A stretch of DNA of 9,735 nucleotides from a virus (taxonomy: Duplodnaviria; Heunggongvirae; Uroviricota; Caudoviricetes). The translations under genes and the position numbers were made by a program. The notes below the pieces were generated by a model. That model was not told the DNA's origin and did no database searches. It was given only the letters and a program-made list of their open reading frames with translations. Within the stretch, counting starts at the first letter, position 1, and every line of letters starts with the position of its first letter. The stretch spans positions 1 to 9,735 of IMG/VR virus record IMGVR_UViG_2671180460_000011; one strand, given 5' to 3'. Of this stretch, positions 1-9,735 are shown piece by piece.

Positions 1-252
1 TTACCATATTTCGTCACCCGCAGGGGTGGATTTACCCCAGACATCCTGCTCGCTAAGTTCCGCGGCGTTCATGTCACACTGTGCCAGCAGTTCATCAAGC
101 GAGTAGCGCCTGGAGATGGGTGTCAGAATCAGTTGGTTGTTGCTCACCTGCGCTTCCACGCTCTGCCCCGGCTGTAAGTTAAGTTCTTTCATTACGATAT
201 TGGGAATGACCATACCTGCACTGTTCCCCCATCTTTTTATGGTAATACGCAT
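1..252 (-). CDS. chpS: ChpS (ChpBI) antitoxin of the ChpB-ChpS toxin-antitoxin pair, MazE/AbrB-fold; host gene
   Basis: Translation MRITIKRWGNSAGMVIPNIVMKELNLQ...GDEIW (83 aa) matches my recollection of E. coli ChpS and resembles MazE. ATG at 250-252 (rc), GGAGG at 258-262 (rc) 5 nt upstream, stop at 1-3 (rc TAA). The ORF track's start at 258 is an in-frame GTG two codons upstream. Confidence 0.75.
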   Translation of the reverse strand: MRITIKRWGNSAGMVIPNIVMKELNLQPGQSVEAQVSNNQLILTPISRRYSLDELLAQCDMNAAELSEQDVWGKSTPAGDEIW

Positions 253-266
253 CTGCACCTCCTTAA

Positions 267-283
267 GTTATACAAAGTATAAC
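267..283. promoter_or_regulatory. Perfect 7-bp inverted repeat GTTATAC-AAA-GTATAAC just upstream of the chpS RBS; likely operator for TA autoregulation
   Basis: The palindrome is read directly from the sequence. Type II antitoxins of the MazE/ChpS family autoregulate through palindromes overlapping their promoter. Confidence 0.4.
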
Positions 284-457
284 TCACGGTGCTACAGGAA
301 ACGTTTTACCCCTGCACATTTGTGAACGCCAGCAGAGTTTTTTATGCGATTGCAGATATGGAAAGCGGCTCGGAGAGAAAAGCAAAAGATGGAAAAGTTA
401 CAAAAAAAAATCGCGAGATACATCGCATAAAACAACGCCACCCGAAGGTGACATGAA

Positions 458-480
458 GGAGGCCGAGCACACTGGCCTCC
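458..480 (+). other. GC-rich hairpin (GGAGGCC / 9-nt loop / GGCCTCC) in the host-prophage junction
   Basis: 7-bp perfect stem seen in sequence, followed on + by CTTTGATATAT (weak T-tract). Could be a host terminator remnant or part of the att region; function unknown. Confidence 0.3.
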
Positions 481-517
481 CTTTGATATATCAATTAGTT
501 ACATTAATACACATAGT

Positions 518-540
518 CTTAAGTGGGCTTATTTAGTCCT
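518..540. other. Putative attachment-site core (prophage end)
   Basis: The reverse complement reads AGGACTAAATAAGCCCACTTAAG. It shares AAATAAGCCC and TAAG with the P2 att core as I recall it (AAAAAATAAGCCCGTGTAAGGGAGATT, from memory and uncertain). It lies just downstream of the int stop, where P2 attP lies. Confidence 0.3.
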
Positions 541-543
541 ATT

Positions 544-1539
544 TTATGGGCAATATCTGGACAACTCAGCCACAGGATTAAAGCGCACAGCATCCTGTAG
601 ATAATCCGGTGCAAAATGGGCATAAGTCATCGTCTGCTGAATAGTGCTATGTCCAAGTATTCTCTGCAAAGTGATGATATTCCCACCATTAATCATGAAG
701 TGAGTGGCAAAGGTATGCCGTAAAACATGTATCGACTGCCCTTCAGGAAGATCGGGCCTCACCTTTCTGATAGCAGCTCTGACAGCTGCATAACTTGGAT
801 AAATTAAACGACCAGTGGCCTTTGTTTTAATCATGCACTCCAGTTCTGACGATATAGGTATAACGCGACGCTTCCCATTTTTGGTTTCCATAAAAATGAC
901 TTTGCCGCTAATAACATGCTCCCCCTTGATATTTGCAACCTCACTCCATCTTCCACCTGTTGCCAGACACAACAAGACTGCTTTTAATTCATCACCAGAT
1001 AACAACTCCAGTAATCGTGGAATATCTTCATGATACAAATAAGCCATTTCAGGCTGTTTGATATTAAGTTTTTTCACATCATGAAACGGATTAGCCCCAG
1101 AATATTCCTCTGCGTCAATTAGTTTTGTGAAAAAACCACTCATCATTGCGCAATAACGATTAACCGTGGATTGTTTTATTCCGCGGTTAAGCAACAATAA
1201 CCGATAATTAATTATGTTCTTACGAGTAAGTTGGTCACTGCGTGTAACATTAATACTTTCAAGATCACTAATGACCGCAGAAATACGCACTCGCTCCATC
1301 GAACCGTAAGGATGATTTTTACCGTGATACAACCACCAACAATCCAGCAACTCCCTCAGCGAGCGCCGTTCTGTTGGCTTATCAACCCAGTCTTTGTCGT
1401 GGTAATGCTGCAATACATGACGCTCATACAAAACAGCCTCACCACGAGTATCAAATCGCCGCCTGAATCTCTTTCCTTCTGATCCAGCAGGCCGCACGTC
1501 CACACAAAATTTGCCATTAGCGAGCTTCTTAATCGACAT
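544..1539 (-). CDS. int: Tyrosine recombinase / integrase, P2 Int family
   Basis: 331 aa from MSIKKLANGKFCVDVRPAGSEGKRFRRRF. The C-terminal HVLRHTFATHFMINGGNIITLQRILGHSTIQQTMTYAHFAPDYLQDAV nearly matches the P2 Int catalytic region (HxLRH box, catalytic Tyr in YAHF). ATG at 1537-1539 (rc) with GGAGGG 7 nt upstream. The ORF track's extra 12 N-terminal codons lack an RBS. Confidence 0.9.
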   Translation of the reverse strand: MSIKKLANGKFCVDVRPAGSEGKRFRRRFDTRGEAVLYERHVLQHYHDKDWVDKPTERRSLRELLDCWWLYHGKNHPYGSMERVRISAVISDLESINVTRSDQLTRKNIINYRLLLLNRGIKQSTVNRYCAMMSGFFTKLIDAEEYSGANPFHDVKKLNIKQPEMAYLYHEDIPRLLELLSGDELKAVLLCLATGGRWSEVANIKGEHVISGKVIFMETKNGKRRVIPISSELECMIKTKATGRLIYPSYAAVRAAIRKVRPDLPEGQSIHVLRHTFATHFMINGGNIITLQRILGHSTIQQTMTYAHFAPDYLQDAVRFNPVAELSRYCP

Positions 1540-1605
1540 AAGGAAGCCCTCCAATGAAAACATCATCTTGATCACTGCTCTGGGAAATAAATGCCTGGTG
1601 AACCG

Positions 1606-1899
1606 TTAACCAGTTTTCTTGCCGGAGCGGGATGATTCCACTTCGTCTTGCCCAATGTGTGCGAGAGCCGGTACAACCTGCCCGGCCTTGGGTTCAACTT
1701 CATCAAACAAAAACCAGTCGCGATATTTAGAAAATCTCGGGTGCTTGAAAAGCTTGATAGTGATCTCAAGGCCAGGAAGGTTACGACCATACTCATAACT
1801 GGTCAGAGCAGAATAAGAAATCCCAATCATATCAGCGAATTCCCGCTGAGTGAGATCTTCAGATTTACGCATGACGCGAATTTTTTGAGGAATGTCCAT
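1606..1899 (-). CDS. C: Immunity repressor, P2 C-type (short HTH repressor)
   Basis: 97 aa MDIPQKIRVMRKSEDLTQREFADMIGISYSALTSYEYGRN...PALAHIGQDEVESSRSGKKTG aligns along its length with P2 C as recalled (IVLMRKSE...YGTLSYYESGR...PALAHFGQNE...SGQKTG). ATG at 1897-1899 (rc), AGGAG 8 nt upstream. Same strand as and upstream of int, as in the P2 C-int transcript. Confidence 0.85.
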   Translation of the reverse strand: MDIPQKIRVMRKSEDLTQREFADMIGISYSALTSYEYGRNLPGLEITIKLFKHPRFSKYRDWFLFDEVEPKAGQVVPALAHIGQDEVESSRSGKKTG

Positions 1900-2013
1900 T
1901 TGACAAACTCCTACACATGTGTAGATTAATACCACATATGAACAGCAAACAAATGTTCTAAGTGGTTCCAACTAGTGCCAATTAGAAAAAGCACCAATGG
2001 CGGAGGATATCAG
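1900..2013. promoter_or_regulatory. Lysis-lysogeny switch region: candidate rightward early promoter and operator palindrome
   Basis: TTGACA at 1900-1905 (+), TAGATT at 1922-1927 (16-bp spacer). A 14-bp perfect palindrome CTACACATGTGTAG at 1911-1924 sits between these hexamers. The leftward Pc promoter is expected further right but I could not pin it confidently. Confidence 0.45.
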
Positions 2014-2439
2014 ATGCAAGAAAGCACTCAAAACGCGCCTGAGTCACTTTGCGGAACACGATGCGCTCACCTGTCAGAAATGCCAGAAGGGGAGCATCAA
2101 AAAACAGAACGCAAAGCACGTGAACGTGAAGAAATTCGACTTTCAGAAAATCCCTCGCATCTCCTGTCAAAAGAAGGATTTGCGCTGTATATCGGCAAAA
2201 CGGTTAGCGCCATTGTGAGCATGGCTAAAGCAGGGAAATTGCCAGCCGTGTATATGGCAGACCCTCTTAGGCCAGGAGGAAACGCTGAACTCTACATCAA
2301 CAGAAAAGCGTGGGATGAAGCATGTGATCGCTTGATCGAAAACGCTCCGCAGGAATGGCATGACTGGGAAAACCGCCTGTTTTTATTTAAGCCGACACAT
2401 AGCGAACGAAGCAGAACTAAAAAAGCGAGGGCCGCATGA
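2014..2439 (+). CDS. cox: Cox-like excisionase / early-promoter regulator with an unusual ~50-aa N-terminal extension
   Basis: The C-terminal ~85 aa (LSKEGFALYIGKTVSAIVSMAKAGKLPAVYMADP...AWDEACDRLIENAPQEWHDW) parallels P2 Cox (EFAKLIGKSTGAVRRMIDKGKLPVIDMTDP...AWNNGLKLAYESRPKEIRDGW). ATG at 2014 with GGAGGA at 2002-2007. Alternative in-frame start at ATG 2080 has no SD. Confidence 0.65.
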   Translation: MQESTQNAPESLCGTRCAHLSEMPEGEHQKTERKAREREEIRLSENPSHLLSKEGFALYIGKTVSAIVSMAKAGKLPAVYMADPLRPGGNAELYINRKAWDEACDRLIENAPQEWHDWENRLFLFKPTHSERSRTKKARAA

Positions 2440-2543
2440 TTGCTTTATTGTTAACACATTATTTTCGTCGCCGTTATTTCAAACACGGGCAGTTAGTGGG
2501 CTATATCACACTGCCTGAATGAGTTAAAAGAGGTAACAGTAGA

Positions 2544-2951
2544 ATGAATCACAAAAATAAAGCGCTACTGGAACGACTGGAAACCCTGAAAAACGAAAAG
2601 CCACACCAGAAGCTTTTGCTGGTTTTTCCGGGCAAACCACAGGTTGAAATCAGCATTGACTACCACGAATTACACAGAACGTTCGCTGACCTGATGGCAT
2701 TTAAATCAAAGCTTCAGAATGGCGAAGATTTGAAAAATGTTACCCTGCATCCTGATGATGAATACGGTCATTTTTGTCGAGATGGTGTCAAAGAAACGAT
2801 TGGAATGATTTTAGAACCAATATACGGCGTTGCGCTCCGTTTCCCCGCCAAAGAAATCTTTGAGCTTTATCGACAAATTTTAAGCAGTGACAACATGGTT
2901 ATTGAGGTCGGAAATGTGCCAGAGAAAATCTCCGGCACGGGAGTTAAATAA
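2544..2951 (+). CDS. Hypothetical protein (135 aa), AT-rich moron-like gene
   Basis: Complete ORF, ATG 2544 with AAAGAGG at 2527-2533. No family recognised. Visibly AT-richer than flanking phage genes. Confidence 0.55.
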   Translation: MNHKNKALLERLETLKNEKPHQKLLLVFPGKPQVEISIDYHELHRTFADLMAFKSKLQNGEDLKNVTLHPDDEYGHFCRDGVKETIGMILEPIYGVALRFPAKEIFELYRQILSSDNMVIEVGNVPEKISGTGVK

Positions 2952-3134
2952 TCACTCAGGGAAAGTCCATGTACTTGCCTGAGGATATTTTTCCAACGTG
3001 AGCTTACGCACTTCGTGCATAAGCTTACGAATGGTATTTGATGGCTCTCCTTTATTCGGAGGATTAACCGGCGCTTTCTCTAATACAGAAATTGCCGCAT
3101 TTAGCGCATCAATAACCTTTTTATCATAGGACAT
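2952..3134 (-). CDS. Hypothetical small protein (60 aa), convergent with and abutting the 135-aa gene
   Basis: ATG at 3132-3134 (rc) with AAGGA 7 nt upstream on the minus strand. Its stop (2952-2954) is immediately adjacent to the stop of the + gene (2949-2951). No family recognised. Confidence 0.4.
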   Translation of the reverse strand: MSYDKKVIDALNAAISVLEKAPVNPPNKGEPSNTIRKLMHEVRKLTLEKYPQASTWTFPE

Positions 3135-3276
3135 ATTTTATTCCTTTGTGGTTGGTTGAACACGCGCCCTTTACAGCCCCTTCAAGACTGTGGGCGGTGG
3201 AAAAATACCACAAAACCATGCGCCGGGCATGGCTAAAACCCGGCACAAATTCGCAACAGCAGCAGGATATTTTTGT

Positions 3277-3627
3277 ATGAAGCAACGACGTAATTCTTCA
3301 CAGCAGCGATTCCGCAACGGGACGGAACGCCACGCTAACCGCTTCGCTACCAGTGCATCACGTAGCAGCTCTCGCTACAGCCTGAACGAAACGCACGCAA
3401 CACCAGACGGACACGCTGTAAAACAAATCGGCGAGCATACCTGGCTGATTGAGAAAGCTGGAATCGTGGTCCACAAATGCCCGCGCAATCCGTTTACCGG
3501 AAACCGCATTTTTGCTCTGAGCAGCGGCGACAATCAGTTCGGGCAGGATTTCACATTATACGAAGCGCTTCGCACGGTTGATCGTCTGCTGCGTGGACAG
3601 AGTTTTATTAAACAGGCTGATTTATAA
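3277..3627 (+). CDS. Hypothetical phage early protein (116 aa; basic N-terminus)
   Basis: ORF open from 3190 (GTG); preferred start ATG 3277 with AGGAT at 3264-3268. Alternative ATG at 3229 has no SD. No family recognised. Confidence 0.5.
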   Translation: MKQRRNSSQQRFRNGTERHANRFATSASRSSSRYSLNETHATPDGHAVKQIGEHTWLIEKAGIVVHKCPRNPFTGNRIFALSSGDNQFGQDFTLYEALRTVDRLLRGQSFIKQADL

Positions 3628-3637
3628 CAGGTGCTTT

Positions 3638-3925
3638 ATGACTAAAGACCATACTCAAGGTGTATTTATCCGCTTTATTGATTTTCGCGGTGAACTGTTA
3701 TTACGCGCATCCGCTATTGATGGAGTGGCTCCGGCGGGGAAAAACGGAGCCGCCGAAGCCACTTACGTTTATCTGAACGGCACGCGACTGATCGTGGAAC
3801 TTCCGTACCAGACCGTACGCGAAATCATTAGCGAAGCTGAAAAGGCTCGTCAGGTTAATGGCGATAAACCCTATATCGAAATTATCTGTATGGATTCAGA
3901 AGCTGAAATCCAGAAGGCAGATTAA
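3638..3925 (+). CDS. Hypothetical phage early protein (95 aa)
   Basis: ATG 3638, 10 nt after the upstream stop, with a weak SD (AGGTG 3629-3633). Coding-like composition. No family recognised. Confidence 0.5.
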   Translation: MTKDHTQGVFIRFIDFRGELLLRASAIDGVAPAGKNGAAEATYVYLNGTRLIVELPYQTVREIISEAEKARQVNGDKPYIEIICMDSEAEIQKAD

Positions 3926-3935
3926 AGGGTGTGCG

Positions 3936-4178
3936 ATGGACAAAGAATATAAAGCTCTTGTCAACAAAGCACTTGAGCGTTTTTATTTTCGCTTAAACAC
4001 ATCAGGGGCCCAGGCAGAACACGCAGCCCATGATTCATTAGCGAGGGCAATCAGAAGCCTTTATGACGTGGCCTTTTACGCTGACGATTTGGATGCGATT
4101 AACGAACTTTCCGAACTCGTCTGCGCTGCAGAATGCGGGGATCGCATTGAACCATATAAACTGGGGAATATCGCATGA
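3936..4178 (+). CDS. Hypothetical phage early protein (80 aa)
   Basis: ATG 3936 with AAGGG at 3925-3929. Its stop TGA 4176-4178 overlaps the ATG 4175 of the next peptide gene (ATGA). Confidence 0.5.
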   Translation: MDKEYKALVNKALERFYFRLNTSGAQAEHAAHDSLARAIRSLYDVAFYADDLDAINELSELVCAAECGDRIEPYKLGNIA

Positions 4179-4312
4179 GTATATTTATGTCATGGATTGT
4201 TCTGATTATTTCGGTGGCCTGCGCAATCGGGATTATGCGAATTATTCATTCAGTGAAAAAGATTGAGCGTTTTTTTCTGACGAATAACAGCACAAATAAA
4301 ACACCAGATTAA
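4175..4312 (+). CDS. Small single-pass membrane peptide (45 aa), MSIFMSWIVLIISVACAIGIMRIIHSVKKIERFFLTNNSTNKTPD; absent from the ORF track
   Basis: Hand-translated codon by codon. ATG 4175 with GGGGA at 4163-4167 and ATGA overlap with the upstream stop. A ~19-residue hydrophobic stretch is followed by a basic tail (RIIHSVKKIER). Stop TAA 4310-4312. Confidence 0.4.
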   Translation: MSIFMSWIVLIISVACAIGIMRIIHSVKKIERFFLTNNSTNKTPD

Positions 4313-4380
4313 ATAAGAAAACGTGAAAACCATCCGAATTAGCGGAGGCATTCACACACGTAAATAATGGAGATAGAAAA

Positions 4381-4791
4381 ATGAACGCAAAAGAAAAAGG
4401 CATTGTAACTGCGCTAAAAAATATATCGAAGACCGCAAACAGAGCCATTCAGGATGCAACAAATGCAGGAATGATTGGGCCTGCCACCACAGCCATGATG
4501 ATAGCAAGAGCAACCGCCGAAGCAGCCGAAATCATCGAAAAACAGGATGCTGAACTAACGGTTCTCAAAACACAACCAACCACCAGACTGAATTTATCTG
4601 ACATTGGACACCTTATTCATATTATTGGCTCGGAGCTACAGCAATACATCATTATCGCCGAATTGCAGGACAAATACCTGATTACCCCTTACCCCATAAG
4701 AGAGTCAGAAGTTCTGACAAATCTCCGCCTGATAGAACGCACTCAGGTCGCATTCATTGATGGCACGCAACGTGCCGTATTTAACGCATAG
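4381..4791 (+). CDS. Hypothetical protein (136 aa), Ala/Thr-rich N-terminal half; AT-rich gene with its own RBS
   Basis: ATG 4381 with GGAGA at 4369-4373, preceded by a 68-bp AT-rich spacer. No family recognised. Confidence 0.55.
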   Translation: MNAKEKGIVTALKNISKTANRAIQDATNAGMIGPATTAMMIARATAEAAEIIEKQDAELTVLKTQPTTRLNLSDIGHLIHIIGSELQQYIIIAELQDKYLITPYPIRESEVLTNLRLIERTQVAFIDGTQRAVFNA

Positions 4792-4814
4792 GGCTATTGG
4801 ACAAAGAGAGCGTA

Positions 4815-5018
4815 ATGGCAATTAAGCATTTTCCCGTCGTTCGCTTTACCTCCAGAGGGCGCGAATACGAGGTCGACGAACGCCTGATTACCACTATCGA
4901 CAAACACCGTTCAGAAAAAGATGCACATCACATCTATCTCACTGACGGCACTTACTTCTGCGCCACCAACGTGGTGCAGGTGAATCTTATCAGACTGGTA
5001 CAGGAGTCACGCAGATGA
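4815..5018 (+). CDS. Hypothetical small protein (67 aa)
   Basis: ATG 4815 (MAIKHFPVVRF...) with AAGAGAG upstream. The ORF track start at 4797 is TTG. Stop TGA 5016-5018 overlaps the next start (ATGA). Confidence 0.5.
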   Translation: MAIKHFPVVRFTSRGREYEVDERLITTIDKHRSEKDAHHIYLTDGTYFCATNVVQVNLIRLVQESRR

Positions 5019-5260
5019 CCATTCTGGACTACATCGCCGCCAATCCGGGTTGTAGCGGTGGAGAAATCGCCGCAGCACTGAATACCCCAACCACAGCCAT
5101 TAATGCGGAGTTACGCCGACTCTGGCGCGACGGCTTAGTCATCAGAGAAGAACGCAAAACAGGCGGTCGGTTCTCTTACCAGGTAAACCCGATGCCGTTC
5201 GGGTGTGGCAACCCACTTACTCACATGTTTAACCAGCTACTGCAGGAAGCCAGAGCATGA
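5015..5260 (+). CDS. Small winged-helix DNA-binding protein (81 aa)
   Basis: ILDYIAANPGCSGGEIAAALNTPTTAINAELRRLWRDGLVIREERKTGGRFSY has the look of a MarR/PadR-like wHTH with a basic wing. ATG 5015 with CAGGAG at 5001-5006; ATGA coupling at both ends. Confidence 0.55.
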   Translation: MTILDYIAANPGCSGGEIAAALNTPTTAINAELRRLWRDGLVIREERKTGGRFSYQVNPMPFGCGNPLTHMFNQLLQEARA

Positions 5261-5556
5261 GCACCATCAACCACCAGGAACTACGCGAACTGGCGACTGA
5301 CCTGCAACGAATAGCAACGCATCAAAAATTACTGGCGTTTCGCGCAATGCTCTCGCCATCTGCCGTGCTGGCACTGCTGGATGAGCTGGAGCACGCCAGA
5401 ACCATGGCTCCTGCCATTCGCCTGACGCTCCATCATGAAATCGCTGATTTCTGTGCACCACTGGGTTCACCTGGCGAACCGGAAACACCGGAAGCAATGC
5501 AGCGAGAGCTGCTGCAACACATCGACAACGTTTTCGATTTTTTCCTTAACCAGTAA
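5257..5556 (+). CDS. Hypothetical phage protein (99 aa); N-terminus faintly reminiscent of Ead/Ea22-like proteins
   Basis: ATG 5257 (ATGA overlap), AGGAAG at 5244-5249. The start MSTINHQELRELATDLQ resembles the Ead/Ea22 N-terminal pattern; weak, from memory. Confidence 0.5.
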   Translation: MSTINHQELRELATDLQRIATHQKLLAFRAMLSPSAVLALLDELEHARTMAPAIRLTLHHEIADFCAPLGSPGEPETPEAMQRELLQHIDNVFDFFLNQ

Positions 5557-5567
5557 AGGACCGCGAT

Positions 5568-5771
5568 ATGAACAAAAAGACCTGGTTTCGCGCATACATG
5601 TGGGCGCTGGTATGCGTCCTCGTCTCTCTCATTCTGTATGCAGGACTACTCCCCCGAATGATTTCATCAGACAGCTCCTTCCTGGTATTGCTGGGCATTT
5701 TCATTGCCATGCTGTACCCGGCAGGCGTTGTTCGCCTTTTCAGTAAGTACATCAAGGAAATCAAACAATGA
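5568..5771 (+). CDS. Small integral membrane protein, two predicted TM helices (67 aa)
   Basis: ATG 5568 with AAAGGA at 5555-5560. Two hydrophobic segments (WALVCVLVSLILYAGLL and FLVLLGIFIAMLYPAGVV) separated by a short polar loop. Stop TGA 5769-5771 overlaps the ATG 5768 of the SPFH gene. Confidence 0.6.
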   Translation: MNKKTWFRAYMWALVCVLVSLILYAGLLPRMISSDSSFLVLLGIFIAMLYPAGVVRLFSKYIKEIKQ

Positions 5772-6598
5772 AGAAATTCAAACTCTTTCAGATTCTCCCG
5801 CTTTTTGCCGCCATCCTGCTGGTTGGTTGCGATCGCGTTGAGCCAGGTAATGTGGGCATCAAAGTCAACAAACTGGGCGACGACAAAGGCGTCGGCGAAG
5901 TGGTTGGCGTTGGCCGCTACTGGACTGGCTGGAATACCGAGGTTTACATCTTCCCGACCTTCAAACAAATGAAGACCTACGATGAGCCGTTCAGCTTCCA
6001 GATGAGTGACGGCACAACCATCGGCTATCACATCGGTGTGGCCTACAAGGTTGATCCATCCAAAGTTACTACAGTGTTTCAGACCTACCGCAAAGGCGTG
6101 GATGACATTACCGACACTGACCTGCGCCAGAAGATCGCCGATGCACTCAACCGACTGGCCAGCAAAATGACCACCGACAAATTTATCGACGGCGGGAAAT
6201 CTGAACTACTGGATGCAGCTCTTAAAGACATTCAGGAGGAAATGACACCCATCGGTATTCAGGTAATGAGCCTCTCATATGTGGGTAAGCCGGAGTACCC
6301 GTCAACCGTTATCGACAGCATTAATGCCAAAGTCACGGCAAACCAGAAAACCCTGCAACGCGAACAGGAAGTCAAGCAACGTGAAGCAGAAGCCAACATG
6401 TTGCGCGCAGAAGCTGCCGGACAGGCTGATGCCATTCGCACAAAAGCCCAGGCTGAAGCCGACGCCATTCGTTTGCGTGGTGAAGCTCTGCGCCAGAATC
6501 CCGGTGTTATGGAGCTGGAAGCGATTAACAAATGGAACGGCACGCTACCGCAATACATGACCAGTAACACCGCTGTTCCGTTTGTTCCGGTGAAGTAA
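5768..6598 (+). CDS. SPFH/band-7 (stomatin/HflK/HflC/prohibitin-like) domain lipoprotein, predicted inner-membrane anchored (276 aa)
   Basis: The N-terminus MKKFKLFQILPLFAAILLVGC-D has a signal peptide and lipobox LVGC (Cys21), with Asp at +2, the classical inner-membrane retention signal. The body has SPFH-like composition and a C-terminal Ala/Glu/Gln/Arg-rich coiled-coil (QREQEVKQREAEANMLRAEAAGQADAIRTKAQAEADAIRLRGEAL) typical of band-7 proteins. Confidence 0.8.
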   Translation: MKKFKLFQILPLFAAILLVGCDRVEPGNVGIKVNKLGDDKGVGEVVGVGRYWTGWNTEVYIFPTFKQMKTYDEPFSFQMSDGTTIGYHIGVAYKVDPSKVTTVFQTYRKGVDDITDTDLRQKIADALNRLASKMTTDKFIDGGKSELLDAALKDIQEEMTPIGIQVMSLSYVGKPEYPSTVIDSINAKVTANQKTLQREQEVKQREAEANMLRAEAAGQADAIRTKAQAEADAIRLRGEALRQNPGVMELEAINKWNGTLPQYMTSNTAVPFVPVK

Positions 6599-6605
6599 TT
6601 CAACC

Positions 6606-6627
6606 CGGCCAGTGAAACCGCTGGCCG
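6606..6627. other. Hairpin (CGGCCAG / 8-nt loop / CTGGCCG) 8 nt after the SPFH stop; no T-tract on either strand
   Basis: 7-bp perfect stem seen in sequence. Not a canonical intrinsic terminator; possibly an RNA-stability or processing element. Confidence 0.3.
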
Positions 6628-6665
6628 AAAATATAACGAATAAACAAAAAGCCAGAGGACAGAGC

Positions 6666-6812
6666 ATGCACAAAGCCTTTGAACGATGGATGCGCCAGCG
6701 TTACGGCAATCGCTATGACCTGACAAGGGATGTTGATGGCTACTACTGCCGCGAAATTGTGAAACGAATGTTTGAAGTGTGGTGTCACGCTCGCGGCCTG
6801 TACGCCGTGTAA
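6666..6812 (+). CDS. Hypothetical small protein (48 aa)
   Basis: ATG 6666 with AGAGGA at 6654-6659. The ORF track's longer version starts at a GTG (6612) inside the upstream hairpin, so I prefer 6666. No family recognised. Confidence 0.4.
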   Translation: MHKAFERWMRQRYGNRYDLTRDVDGYYCREIVKRMFEVWCHARGLYAV

Positions 6813-6951
6813 TCCATGTCACTGTCAGAAGATTAACCCATGTACACACAAAAAAACCGCTTGCCATGCCGTAATCAGTCAGGTTACATTTCCGCTGCAC
6901 CTCATAAAACGGGTGCCGGGTTTCGCAGCCTGCTGACTAGCAAAGCGCACA

Positions 6952-6971
6952 ACCGCGCCAGCGGTTTTTTT
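6952..6971 (+). terminator. Candidate Rho-independent terminator ending the long early operon
   Basis: ACCGC-GCCA-GCGGT hairpin (5-bp stem, 4-nt loop) immediately followed by T7 (6965-6971). The stem is short, so strength is uncertain. Confidence 0.45.
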
Positions 6972-7150
6972 GTGCGTACCGTATCGCCACGTCTTTTTCG
7001 CACACGAATTATGGTGGGGCGTATGGGGCCGACTTCGGTCGGGCCGGGTTCTTTGCTAGCCGGTACTGCGAACCTCGTACGTCTCGCCACCCACAGTTTC
7101 GCAGCTCTGGATGGTGAGTTTTCACAACTTACTAGCAAAGAGGCCACACC

Positions 7151-7378
7151 ATGGCAAACCGCAAACAGCGCGCATACGCTGCGCGTCGTCACATCCAGAC
7201 TGAAATCGATCGCAGACTCACCCGCGCTGCACACATCGCCTTTATCATGCAATCCAACACATTGCACAGACTCAACAGCACTATTTCAGCCGACTACTGC
7301 GCCGCTGTATTCAGCTATCTGGCGGAAGACCTCCTGTCTCTTCAGGATCTCATCCAGCAGCAAAACAAACTCCATTAA
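7151..7378 (+). CDS. Hypothetical phage protein (75 aa)
   Basis: ATG 7151 with AAGAGG at 7138-7143. No family recognised. Confidence 0.5.
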   Translation: MANRKQRAYAARRHIQTEIDRRLTRAAHIAFIMQSNTLHRLNSTISADYCAAVFSYLAEDLLSLQDLIQQQNKLH

Positions 7379-7450
7379 TTACGGTACCAGGTCTCTCCTG
7401 CACTTTGCGGCGGGAGGCCTGCGCACATCTTTAACAAAGCGAGGTGCAGC

Positions 7451-7840
7451 ATGATTGACCGTCATGACTTCGTAAAATGGGTGCGCACACAGGACACCCG
7501 TCTGGCTCCAAAACTTCAGGCAATGTTTGATCTCTATCTCCGTGCCCGTGCCAGCCAGGCACGCACCACAAAACCGGAGAACACAGACACCCTTTATTTC
7601 ACCGTGGACGACTGTTACCGCGTGGTCTTCACACCACACGGTCTGGCCCTGTACACCCTGACACCACGCAGCGACTCCCTGCTGGCGTATTACAACTCCC
7701 CGGCTTCTGTATTTGCAGCCATACTGGCGCATCGCACCGCTGGCGGGTGTGCATCGCTGAATGAATACACCGCTGAATTTAACCGCCTGTCCGCCCTCTT
7801 CTCGCAGGAGTGGCAGCGCGTGACGGGATACCAGCCATGA
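7451..7840 (+). CDS. Hypothetical phage protein (129 aa), translationally coupled to gene A
   Basis: ATG 7451 with GAGG at 7441-7444. Stop TGA 7838-7840 overlaps the ATG 7837 of A (ATGA). Confidence 0.55.
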   Translation: MIDRHDFVKWVRTQDTRLAPKLQAMFDLYLRARASQARTTKPENTDTLYFTVDDCYRVVFTPHGLALYTLTPRSDSLLAYYNSPASVFAAILAHRTAGGCASLNEYTAEFNRLSALFSQEWQRVTGYQP

Positions 7841-9735
7841 GTGAGTTTGCATGGAGCTGGAATGAACCGCAGCCAGCCATTGATCCGGACGACTTCGCGA
7901 ACTTCAGTCGGTTGCCAAAAACCGGACTGCAACGCGCCATTCGTTACTACCGCGAAGCGGACAAAAAGGCTCAGGAAGAACAGGAAGCGAAGGAAGAAGC
8001 CCTTTTCGCACAATCCGATACAGGCAAAAAACTCATGGCGTCCCTTGAGGAAGCCGGGCAACGCGAAAAACTGATAAAAAACATCATCAGTAAGCGCCAG
8101 GAAATAAAGCAAGACCCGGTGGCCCGTGCCTTTGCCAAACTGAAGGCACTTCCCGTTTATTTGCGTGCCCCCCTGAGCCGCCGCCTCTCTTTTTTGCGTA
8201 AAAAGCAAGAGTCAGACCGCCAGAAAGGGAAAAAAGCCAGTCAGGCTGACGGGTACGCGCAGGGAACGCTGCGCAAGATATTCGAACGTCTGGACCGCAC
8301 CGACCGCCGCTGGCTGACCCCGGCTTATTGCGCCCTTGCCGGACGTGAACGCCTGGACGATTTGCTGTACCTGCCGCAGCTTAACAAGCACCAGATACAG
8401 ACGCTGGCCACCATGACTGCGGCGATGTTCAGCTGCACCTTCGAAAAACTCTGCGATGGCTTTGGCGCGACTGATGGCGAGCTGACCATGGATGTAACGC
8501 TGAAGGCATATCAGATGCTGGCCCGCATGGCGTTACACCTGCACGCCATGCCGCCACATTATGACGCACTGACAACAGATAAAGACCGGAGGAACGAACC
8601 GGACACGGAGCTGCTGCCGGGCGCAATCCTTCGCCTGACCTGTGCGGAATGGTGGAAACGCAAACTGTGGCTGTTACGTTGCGAGTGGAGAGAAGAACAA
8701 CTCCGCGCCGCCTGTCTGGTTTCCAGAAAAACATCACCCTATCTGAGCCAGGACGCGTTAAGCGAGTTTCGCGCACAGCGCGAGAAAACACGCGATTTCC
8801 TGAAAAGTTTCATGCTGGAAAATGAAGACGGGTTCACGATTGATCTCGAGACGGTGTATTACGCGGGAGTAAGTAACCCGGTTCACCGTAAGGCAGAAAT
8901 GATGGCCACCATGAAGGGACTGGAACTTCTGGCCGAAGCCCGTGGCGACAGAGCGGTGTTTCTGACCGTCACCTGCCCGTCAAAATACCACGCAACAACG
9001 GAGAACGGTCATCCGAACCCCAAATGGAACGGGGCCACCATGCGCGATTCCAGCGATTACCTGGTTAACACGTTTTTTAAGGCGGTCCGCAAAAAACTGA
9101 ACCGCGACGGCCTGCGCTGGTATGGCATTCGCACGGTGGAGCCTCACCATGACGGCACCGTGCACTGGCACATGATGGTCTTTGCACATCCGGAAGAAAT
9201 CGACAGCATCGTGGACATCACCCGTGATATTGCCATTCGCGAAGACCGCCACGAGCTGGGCAATGACATAACTCCGCGCTTTAAGGCAGAGTACGTCGAC
9301 GGTTCGAAAGGTACGCCGACCAGCTACATCGCCACCTACATCGGAAAGAACCTGGACAGCCGCGCCGTGGATGGCATTGACCCGAAAACAGGCAAACCGC
9401 GCATCGACGACGAATCAGGAAAGACGATGGCAGAAAGCGTGGAACGCGCCATCGGCTGGGCGCGCCTTCACCGGGTCCGCCAGTTCCAGTTCTTTGGCAT
9501 CCCCTCCCGTCAGGTATGGCGTGAACTGCGCCGCCTTGCCTGTCAGATGGCACGTAACCCACAGGGACCGCAACGTCTGGAAAATGACGCAATGGATGCG
9601 GTTCTTGCTGCCGCTGATGCCGGATGTTTTGCCACCTACATAGAGAAACAGGGCGGCGTGCTTGTTCCACGCAAAGACTACCTGATTCGCACCGCCTACG
9701 ACCTCGCAGATGAGCTGAACGATTACGGCGAACAG
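7837..9735 (+). CDS. A: Rolling-circle replication initiator endonuclease, P2 gpA family; 3' end lies beyond the window
   Basis: Frame open from ATG 7837 to the window end (633 codons); I checked it codon by codon. Absent from the ORF track, presumably because no stop lies in the window. Contains the HUH-type motif EPHHDGTVHWHMMVF (HWH at 9162-9170). Its position as last gene of the early operon fits P2 A. Confidence 0.85.
   Translation, partial: MSEFAWSWNEPQPAIDPDDFANFSRLPKTGLQRAIRYYREADKKAQEEQEAKEEALFAQSDTGKKLMASLEEAGQREKLIKNIISKRQEIKQDPVARAFAKLKALPVYLRAPLSRRLSFLRKKQESDRQKGKKASQADGYAQGTLRKIFERLDRTDRRWLTPAYCALAGRERLDDLLYLPQLNKHQIQTLATMTAAMFSCTFEKLCDGFGATDGELTMDVTLKAYQMLARMALHLHAMPPHYDALTTDKDRRNEPDTELLPGAILRLTCAEWWKRKLWLLRCEWREEQLRAACLVSRKTSPYLSQDALSEFRAQREKTRDFLKSFMLENEDGFTIDLETVYYAGVSNPVHRKAEMMATMKGLELLAEARGDRAVFLTVTCPSKYHATTENGHPNPKWNGATMRDSSDYLVNTFFKAVRKKLNRDGLRWYGIRTVEPHHDGTVHWHMMVFAHPEEIDSIVDITRDIAIREDRHELGNDITPRFKAEYVDGSKGTPTSYIATYIGKNLDSRAVDGIDPKTGKPRIDDESGKTMAESVERAIGWARLHRVRQFQFFGIPSRQVWRELRRLACQMARNPQGPQRLENDAMDAVLAAADAGCFATYIEKQGGVLVPRKDYLIRTAYDLADELNDYGEQ

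Follow-up and report, generated by a model that had tools for sequence, protein, structure and literature searches.

A phage gene pair encoding a predicted SPFH lipoprotein and a two-helix membrane partner, sometimes fused, in P88-type prophages and many unrelated phages

The DNA analysed here (referred to as the window throughout) is the 9,735-nucleotide stretch that makes up positions 1 to 9,735 of IMG/VR virus record IMGVR_UViG_2671180460_000011. It represents a P88-type prophage, in agreement with the P2-like nature first ascribed to it, P88 itself being classified as Xuanwuvirus within the Peduoviridae. A reading of the letters and their open reading frames (ORFs) alone, which we call the original prediction, had singled out two genes on the + strand at 5568-6598 as a coupled membrane module that might be undescribed. 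All the sequence features on which this proposal was built are present where they had been placed. The first gene (5568-5771, +) encodes a 67-aa two-helix membrane protein, recognized from its ORF, its profile match and its charge distribution, and its stop codon (TGA, 5769-5771) overlaps the start codon (ATG, 5768-5770) of the second gene (5768-6598, +; stop codon at 6596-6598) in an ATGA sequence (5768-5771) that couples the translation of both. The second gene encodes a 276-aa protein with a signal peptide, an LVGC lipobox and Asp at position +2. An AAGGA-type Shine-Dalgarno sequence lies 7-9 nt upstream of both starts (AAAGGA at 5555-5560 for the small ORF). The counterparts of the two genes in P88 are gp11 ('membrane protein') and gp12 ('lipoprotein'), with a nucleotide identity of 94.6%; for the SPFH gene, identity at the protein level is 99.3%.

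The 276-aa protein begins MKKFKLFQILPLFAAILLVGC|DR, so that the signal peptide (residues 1-21, 5768-5830) ends in the lipobox L-V-G-C with Cys21 (codon 5828-5830) followed by Asp+2 and Arg+3; the sequence LLVGC agrees with the lipobox pattern [LVI][ASTVI][GAS]C. As judged from these features, the protein is probably exported and lipid-modified at Cys21. Its mature part (D22-K276, 5831-6598, +) is matched by the Pfam Band_7/SPFH family PF01145 over residues 23-209 (E=1.8e-30, 106.7 bits against a cut-off of 23.6), which bears out the SPFH-like body originally proposed, and the protein falls into the lipoprotein family phrog_200 (E=4.7e-112). An AlphaFold2 (AF2) model derived from 35 diverse homologues, with a mean predicted local distance difference test (pLDDT) score of 88.7, consists of an alpha/beta SPFH body (5834-6394, +; strands within residues 21-95 and 164-176), a 65-residue helix (residues 179-243; 6302-6496, +), a short helix and a flexible tail. 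What had been described as an 'AEQR-rich coiled coil' is this single predicted helix. Full-length comparison with the PDB using Foldseek placed HflK/HflC first (7vhq, E=3e-14), with further matches to prohibitin, erlin, stomatin, flotillin, QmcA and major vault protein. A conserved C-terminal motif, KW.G.LP (~6524-6556, +), contains W256 and G258, both invariant in the family alignment, and P261, which is kept in at least 90%. Structure prediction and fold search thus agree on an SPFH fold of the cage-forming type, a model-based assignment that we regard as solid, and we infer that the lipoprotein would form an oligomeric ring or cage.

The 67-aa partner has hydrophobic segments at about residues 9-29 and 41-58, with three Lys/Arg residues in each tail against one in the loop. 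It belongs to phrog_1130 (membrane protein, E=1.3e-22), a family filed under the PHROG category 'moron, auxiliary metabolic gene and host takeover'. The only strongly conserved residues of the partner alignment are Pro29, which is invariant, and Ser33, present in at least 90%; both lie in the loop between the helices, within the motif P-x-[LM]-[IV]-S. Because Lys/Arg residues cluster in both tails, and because the depositors of phage KpCHEMY26 predicted the topology 'N in C in' for its partner, the protein would be an N-in/C-in hairpin with a short periplasmic loop, and the conserved loop should therefore face the side of the membrane on which the SPFH domain lies. The suspicion that so small a partner is not an NfeD protein proved correct, as none of 14 partner sequences matched Pfam NfeD (PF01957) at E up to 1, and a partner profile searched against the PDB found no YbbJ, returning chance matches alone (E>=0.39). 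Two other assignments were considered and dropped: a likeness to RseC/MucC (E=0.032) falls below the cut-off and was taken as noise from two-helix composition, and a holin identity is unsupported, with Phage_holin_3_6 matched by one member alone (E=0.15).

To examine the association of the two genes we used a set of 112 loci (the window, four annotated phages, 80 IMG/VR contigs and 27 genomes) drawn from Enterobacterales, Sutterella, Dyella/Rhodanobacter, Leptospirales, Dependentiae, Methylumidiphilus and Bacteroidota. A hidden Markov model (HMM) of the small protein, searched against all six-frame ORFs of these loci (934 kb, 17,527 ORFs), matched the ORF immediately 5' of the SPFH gene in 106 of them and gave zero matches elsewhere in the set, so the pairing goes far beyond chance. 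Inspection of the six misses by eye revealed a clear two-helix ORF with the loop motif in three (two Sutterella and one Aurantimicrobium) and a doubtful variant of the partner in Cupriavidus; overall, at least 109 of the 112 SPFH genes are directly preceded by a small two-helix ORF. The same arrangement, with a partner of 62-78 aa, recurs in four unrelated backgrounds, namely P88, the lambdoid phage phiP27, the P1-like RCS47 and the 108-kb Cyrano, which has a RepA replication initiator, and in records of these types the small ORF frequently goes without annotation. The gene junction is -4 nt in all P88-type loci, and KpCHEMY26 has an overlap of a similar kind.

Further evidence that the two proteins belong together comes from gene fusions. 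A HMMER search with the SPFH protein yielded 221 clusters (50% identity) at E<1e-30, and the N-termini of 144 full-length representatives among the best 150 clusters were surveyed. A signal peptide with Cys at the lipobox position is found in 110 of these and a hydrophobic anchor without Cys in 12, whereas 22 (about 15%) have an N-terminal extension of at least 50 aa carrying a two-helix domain. Of the 22 extensions, 16 are matched by an HMM built from four free-standing partners (E from 7e-9 to 4e-3), which has no match among the ordinary signal peptides of the 144. In all but one of the 22 fusions a third hydrophobic segment with a Cys comes next, giving the order hairpin, signal/lipobox, SPFH. 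The AF2 model of a fused protein likewise has three N-terminal helices followed by the SPFH domain, secondary-structure order being the only usable aspect of this model. Both the ATGA coupling and these 'Rosetta-stone' fusions speak for joint action of the two proteins at about 1:1, and the coupled partner of the original prediction is genuine. One distant member of the family, P0149, has its two-helix domain C-terminal of the SPFH domain (residues 271-344, HMM match at 293-336, with 'MKKEIIKS' ahead of it). Here the gene order is probably reversed, with in-frame reading of a partner gene that lies downstream; we take it, with caution, as probable read-through because a true C-terminal fusion would invert the topology of the hairpin.

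The pair is widely distributed. Its DNA was found in 1,721 of 5,426 complete E. coli genomes, at up to four places per genome and with 393 places on plasmids. A tblastn search located the SPFH protein in 385 deposited phage genomes, many of them strictly virulent, including the N4-like KpCHEMY26, Moo19 and Pokken, the rV5-like PVP-SE1 and the FelixO1-like phiEa104; LUZ24-like Pseudomonas phages, phiCbK, crAss-like phages, a Lak phage and a jumbo phage are further carriers. The partner HMM also finds its target in virulent phages (KpCHEMY26 gp28, E=6e-16; PVP-SE1 gp115, E=1e-13). In PVP-SE1 (our locus L113, 382-3838) the 54-aa, soluble-looking gp116 stands between the partner gp115 and the SPFH protein gp117, and the pair sits among four other small membrane-protein genes. 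In three distant loci, from Leptospirales, Sutterella and Dyella, the neighbouring genes match phage protein families. The Leptospirales locus has genes for a Sak4-like annealing protein and an exonuclease on the upstream side and one for a tail fibre on the downstream side; the cassette adjoins recombination or replication genes in Cyrano, in KpCHEMY26 and in this Leptospirales prophage.

Among related P2-like prophages, a survey of the kind suggested at the outset found the pair to be optional rather than invariant. The neighbouring replication-endonuclease segment has a full match in 406 genomes, the cassette context in 112, and two P2-like prophages with the same replication endonuclease lack the pair, their slots being either empty of accessory genes or occupied by a Dam methylase and other genes. 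Because such relatives exist, the pair must be accessory and lie outside the replication core; it is accessory cargo of the early region, for which lysogeny is no prerequisite. What is carried between the cox-like genes and the replication endonuclease thus varies among these prophages (L117, 3139-6928; L118, 6474-7001), and in one relative the slot holds genes for a DNA adenine methylase, a DUF4406 protein and a DNA-binding protein.

Comparison of cassettes from unrelated phages revealed a sharp mosaic structure. The mature SPFH proteins of P88-type, P1-like and lambdoid cassettes share 94-97% of their amino acids, whereas identity is 22-38% for the partner and 33-43% for the signal peptide. 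At the DNA level a block at 5825-6565 (+) is 78-98% identical to unrelated phages: in 60-column windows nucleotide identity climbs to 0.78-0.98 at ~5843 and falls at ~6562-6563, and megablast matches to phiP27, Stx2 phages and the P1-like RCS47 start at query positions 626-629 and end at 1366-1399. The conserved block is the mature SPFH coding part alone, with the partner gene, the signal peptide and the flanks unrelated in DNA sequence. This pattern fits recombination or gene conversion limited to the SPFH body, among the SPFH genes of co-resident phages, together with strong purifying selection, and it fits partner alleles that are old and divergent beside a conserved SPFH block. It follows from the mosaic boundary that recognition of the partner can rest on a few conserved features only. 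In the phage-plasmid RCS47 (L003, 1926-4163) the cassette lies between upl/plp and tRNA-Met/dnaB(ban), a position at which P1 carries tciABC, and which may be an exchangeable slot for membrane functions. Yersinia pestis NCTC5923 (L089, 5001-5828) has a 77%-identical copy with a partner on a 108-kb contig of plasmid-like size, and there are similar contigs of 90-110 kb in Kluyvera, Buttiauxella and Lelliottia; all of these resemble Cyrano-type phage-plasmids.

In the window, the integrase gene (544-1575, - strand) and the gene for a C-type repressor (1606-1971, - strand) precede the rightward early operon. Upstream of the pair, and outside the module, this operon contains a phrog_3459 ORF (4797-5018, +), an ORF for a MarR-type winged helix-turn-helix protein (5015-5260, +) and an Ead/Ea22-like ORF (5257-5556, +), and P88 gp08-gp12 stand in the same gene order as the segment 4797-6598. 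Throughout this segment the genes are tightly packed on the same strand, and neither a promoter nor a terminator belonging to the pair was detected on the + strand between 4797 and 6598, a weak hairpin inside the small ORF excepted. Given the packing and the lack of a promoter-like site, the pair is most simply part of the repressor-controlled early transcript, and early expression is suggested on the same grounds. A classic moron, with a promoter or terminator of its own, was rejected for the same 4797-6598 interval. The first convincing terminator-like hairpin (6951-6966) is that of the downstream isrK small RNA (sRNA). G+C content across the pair (0.49-0.53) is close to that of the flanks and uninformative as a composition anomaly. 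A 103-aa ORF in another frame (5435-5746, +), which shares its DNA with the last part of the Ead-like gene and the greater part of the partner gene, has no hydrophobic segments and no support of any kind, and was judged spurious.

Several neighbouring features were recorded in passing. The Hfq-binding sRNA isrK (6897-6971, 65.5 bits) lies directly downstream of the pair, and a promoter-like site at 6861-6890 and the hairpin just mentioned are compatible with it. A C4 antisense RNA (7007-7094, +, 79.9 bits) comes next, and the region 6861-7094 looks like a c4/antirepressor immunity module of the P1/P7 type within a P2-like prophage; the annotation of P88 has a 'derepression protein' in the matching region. 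At the left end of the window, an ORF at 1-258 (- strand; MQMRITIKRWGNSAGMVIPNIVMKELNL...) reads, by eye alone, like an AbrB-fold antitoxin of the MazE/ChpS type and is probably host chromosome flanking the prophage integrase.

We postulate that the pair encodes an early-made host-takeover device, in which an SPFH ring or cage and a two-helix partner, present at 1:1, act at the periplasmic face of the inner membrane; this is the best explanation we can offer, and we put its probability at about one half. The two genes would constitute one unit, a membrane module made at roughly equal amounts and, as the operon structure suggests, transcribed with the early lytic genes. HflK/C, prohibitin, stomatin, erlin, flotillin and QmcA form closed rings or cages from an SPFH body and a long helix of this type, and the lipoprotein may assemble in a comparable way on the periplasmic side of the inner membrane. 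The two-helix hairpins would then be membrane-embedded partners or clients of this ring or cage, an arrangement paralleling NfeD in QmcA-YbbJ or FtsH in HflK/C, and the device might fence off or stiffen patches of inner membrane during infection. What the phage would gain can be suggested only tentatively. The likeliest benefit, somewhat ahead of an effect on FtsH-type quality control, is that the envelope of the infected cell might be insulated, so that entry of a second genome, or premature damage to the inner membrane and lysis, is blocked. More speculative again is the idea that an SPFH cage with a rapidly diversifying two-helix partner serves temperate and virulent phages of hosts from many phyla as a general envelope-insulation device, acting in superinfection exclusion or as a shield against membrane-targeting host defences.

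A number of observations weigh against this reading, beginning with the location of the lipoprotein. Asp+2, which is kept in all close enterobacterial copies, had been taken to establish retention in the inner membrane. The residue is indeed there; however, a strong Lol-avoidance signal is Asp+2 without an adjacent basic residue (PMC6469965), and in the window protein Arg+3 follows it directly, which makes retention less certain. Across the family the +2 residue varies (T 29, S 24, D 18, G 13, and others), and a possibly related SPFH protein of a Pasteurella prophage was found in outer-membrane vesicles (PMC9872710). The extracytoplasmic face of the cytoplasmic membrane is favoured because Cys-less, transmembrane-anchored variants and fused forms exist, and we regard an inner-membrane location as likely, not established. 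Nor is pairing universal. Two of the 112 loci, from Shigella and E. coli, truly lack a partner; these copies, in Shigella flexneri and E. coli genomes (L086 and L087, ~4250-5831; signal peptide MKKVIPALALVLLTTGLVGC), are possibly decayed or rearranged prophage remnants. Upstream of the most distant phage SPFH lipoproteins (phiEa104, Ab22, phiCbK; <=38% identity) the small ORFs are different ones. Our promoter scan was crude, and an internal promoter could have escaped it. Superinfection-exclusion proteins are usually lineage-specific and fast-evolving, unlike the mature SPFH body with its near-identity across unrelated phages. Lastly, the literature searched contained annotation remarks and one Pasteurella virulence paper and no functional study of a phage SPFH protein in infection.

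Of the other explanations, the likeliest, which takes up the reference of the original prediction to the turnover of lambda CII, is that the phage protein mimics or joins host HflK/C in the periplasm and alters FtsH proteolysis of phage regulators or envelope-biogenesis proteins, an idea also put forward by the authors describing Burkholderia phage CSP3. The SPFH domain would face the periplasm as in HflK/C, these two proteins are the best matches in both sequence and structure, and the universal occurrence of FtsH agrees with the broad host range of the family. SPFH proteins generally partner membrane proteases. Yet the NCBIfam equivalog models for HflK/HflC score only about 24 bits against cut-offs of 134-159 (TIGR01932, 24.3 against 134.4; TIGR01933, 23.5 against 159.4), and prohibitin, erlin and stomatin match nearly as well as HflK/C. 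The phage has a single SPFH gene instead of a K/C pair, a lipid anchor instead of a transmembrane helix, and a dedicated two-helix partner of its own. Many carriers are virulent and have no lysogeny decision to make, and P2-like phages are not known to use a CII-type switch. We therefore think modulation of FtsH unlikely, though second to envelope insulation in probability. Rather less probable is the second suggestion made at the outset, that the pair serves a prophage in antiphage defence, as an abortive-infection system or in superinfection exclusion by the lysogen; in one version the small protein would be a holin-like pore that the SPFH cage restrains. An accessory cassette that moves between unrelated phages and phage-plasmids and is so frequent in complete E. 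coli genomes would suit such a role, as would a small two-helix partner that has diverged between cassettes in the manner expected of a conflict-driven component; in PhiSH19 the SPFH ORF adjoins an ORF annotated as a superinfection exclusion (Sie) protein, a neighbour that suits envelope insulation as well. The pair lies, however, within a repressor-controlled early lytic operon in which no promoter of its own was detected, and the hundreds of deposited phage genomes with the SPFH gene include strictly virulent phages whose copies come with the same partner and which have no lysogen to protect. The pore version also has to contend with the lack of any significant holin-family match. In PADLOC-DB v2 the SPFH protein has no match, which agrees with the earlier remark that no named antiphage system of this build was known to its author, and the partner gives a marginal one to PDC-M18B (E=0.0078, 21 residues). 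The observation that prompted the original prediction is therefore confirmed as real, and as more general than was supposed, whereas its defence hypothesis is weakened.

Two readings have still less in their favour. A lipoprotein of lysogenic conversion or virulence, altering the host surface and stimulating innate immunity as has been described for Pasteurella PM0222, is improbable. The family occurs in environmental, plant-associated and virulent phages, to which animal virulence is irrelevant. The Pasteurella case concerns an HflK/C-like prophage protein of 25-35 kDa that is present in outer-membrane vesicles and signals through TLR1/2, deletion of its gene attenuating virulence (PMC9872710). 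In favour of this reading, TLR1/2 is the receptor pair for triacylated lipoproteins, and PM0222 may be related to the phage SPFH family. The name 'serine protease', under which the SPFH gene stands in GenBank for phiP27, Stx2 phages and some others, has nothing but the annotation itself to recommend it and is effectively refuted. Pfam, NCBIfam and PHROGs reveal no protease domain beyond a marginal phrog_11227 match over the helix (E=5e-4), and signal peptide, SPFH body and helix take up the whole length of the protein. The name probably goes back to stomatin operons, with which NfeD/ClpP-type proteases are associated. Records of the family also appear as 'putative serine protease' and 'putative transposase' (for example AJ298298, LC5678xx, ON706965 and MG845684), labels that no profile backs, and both the protease and the transposase names deserve replacement.

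Set beside known systems, the module resembles two without being either. With E. coli HflK/HflC (7vhq, 7wi3, 9cz2) the window protein shares an SPFH body, a long helix and, as predicted, an SPFH domain facing the periplasm from the inner membrane, and HflK/HflC are its best matches not only in structure but also in sequence (E=6e-4). Identity is nevertheless about 17-18%, and the phage-borne protein stands as a single gene, has a lipobox in place of the N-terminal transmembrane helix and comes with its own two-helix partner. The SPFH-NfeD operons (QmcA-YbbJ, 8z5g; YqiK-YqiJ; archaeal stomatin-STOPP) offer the closer parallel in genetic layout: an SPFH gene adjoins a co-transcribed gene for a small membrane protein, the two are in some cases fused, the partner probably sits within or beneath the SPFH assembly, and QmcA is among the structural matches. 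In contrast to NfeD, the phage partner consists of two helices in 58-78 aa and lacks an NfeD/OB-fold domain. The phage SPFH protein is exported, unlike QmcA, which faces the cytoplasm. T4 Imm, T4 Sp and T5 Llp, immunity proteins of virulent phages, are early-expressed small membrane proteins or lipoproteins acting at the envelope, T5 Llp being a small outer-membrane lipoprotein that plugs FhuA. They provide a working analogy to the module, with no kinship in sequence or fold, and none is an SPFH protein.

The genes themselves are not new. P88 gp11/gp12, phiP27 L05 and PHROG families 1130 and 200 are the same genes without structural difference, and the window copy is an ordinary member of this large catalogued family; as these entries carry no function, the description of the pair as 'undescribed' holds for its function and not for its genes. 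Phage SPFH/band-7 genes have been on record since 2006, in T4-like phages and also in PhiSH19, DLP5 and CSP3, and a 2026 paper on GIB1 called the reason for an SPFH-type gene in a phage 'unclear'. The literature that we searched has no description of a two-gene or fused SPFH-partner module. What is new here is the recognition of an SPFH lipoprotein with a dedicated, non-NfeD two-helix partner to which it is sometimes fused.

Recent work has revealed that HflK/C, prohibitin, stomatin, flotillin and erlin form closed cages at membranes, the roles of which are often unclear. Hundreds of phages, and about a third of complete E. coli genomes, contain a minimal version of an SPFH system in two genes and sometimes in one. 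To our knowledge the pair is absent from E. coli K-12, a strain that was not specifically searched, and for this reason functional work may have passed the module by. A cage formed by the pair with its own client would make a compact model for SPFH-client recognition, and if our reading is true, the pair would point to an unexplored step in the takeover of the cell envelope by phages. Should the module indeed be an insulation device, it would be the first SPFH-based system of phage conflict and a self-contained SPFH-client pair tractable for structural work.

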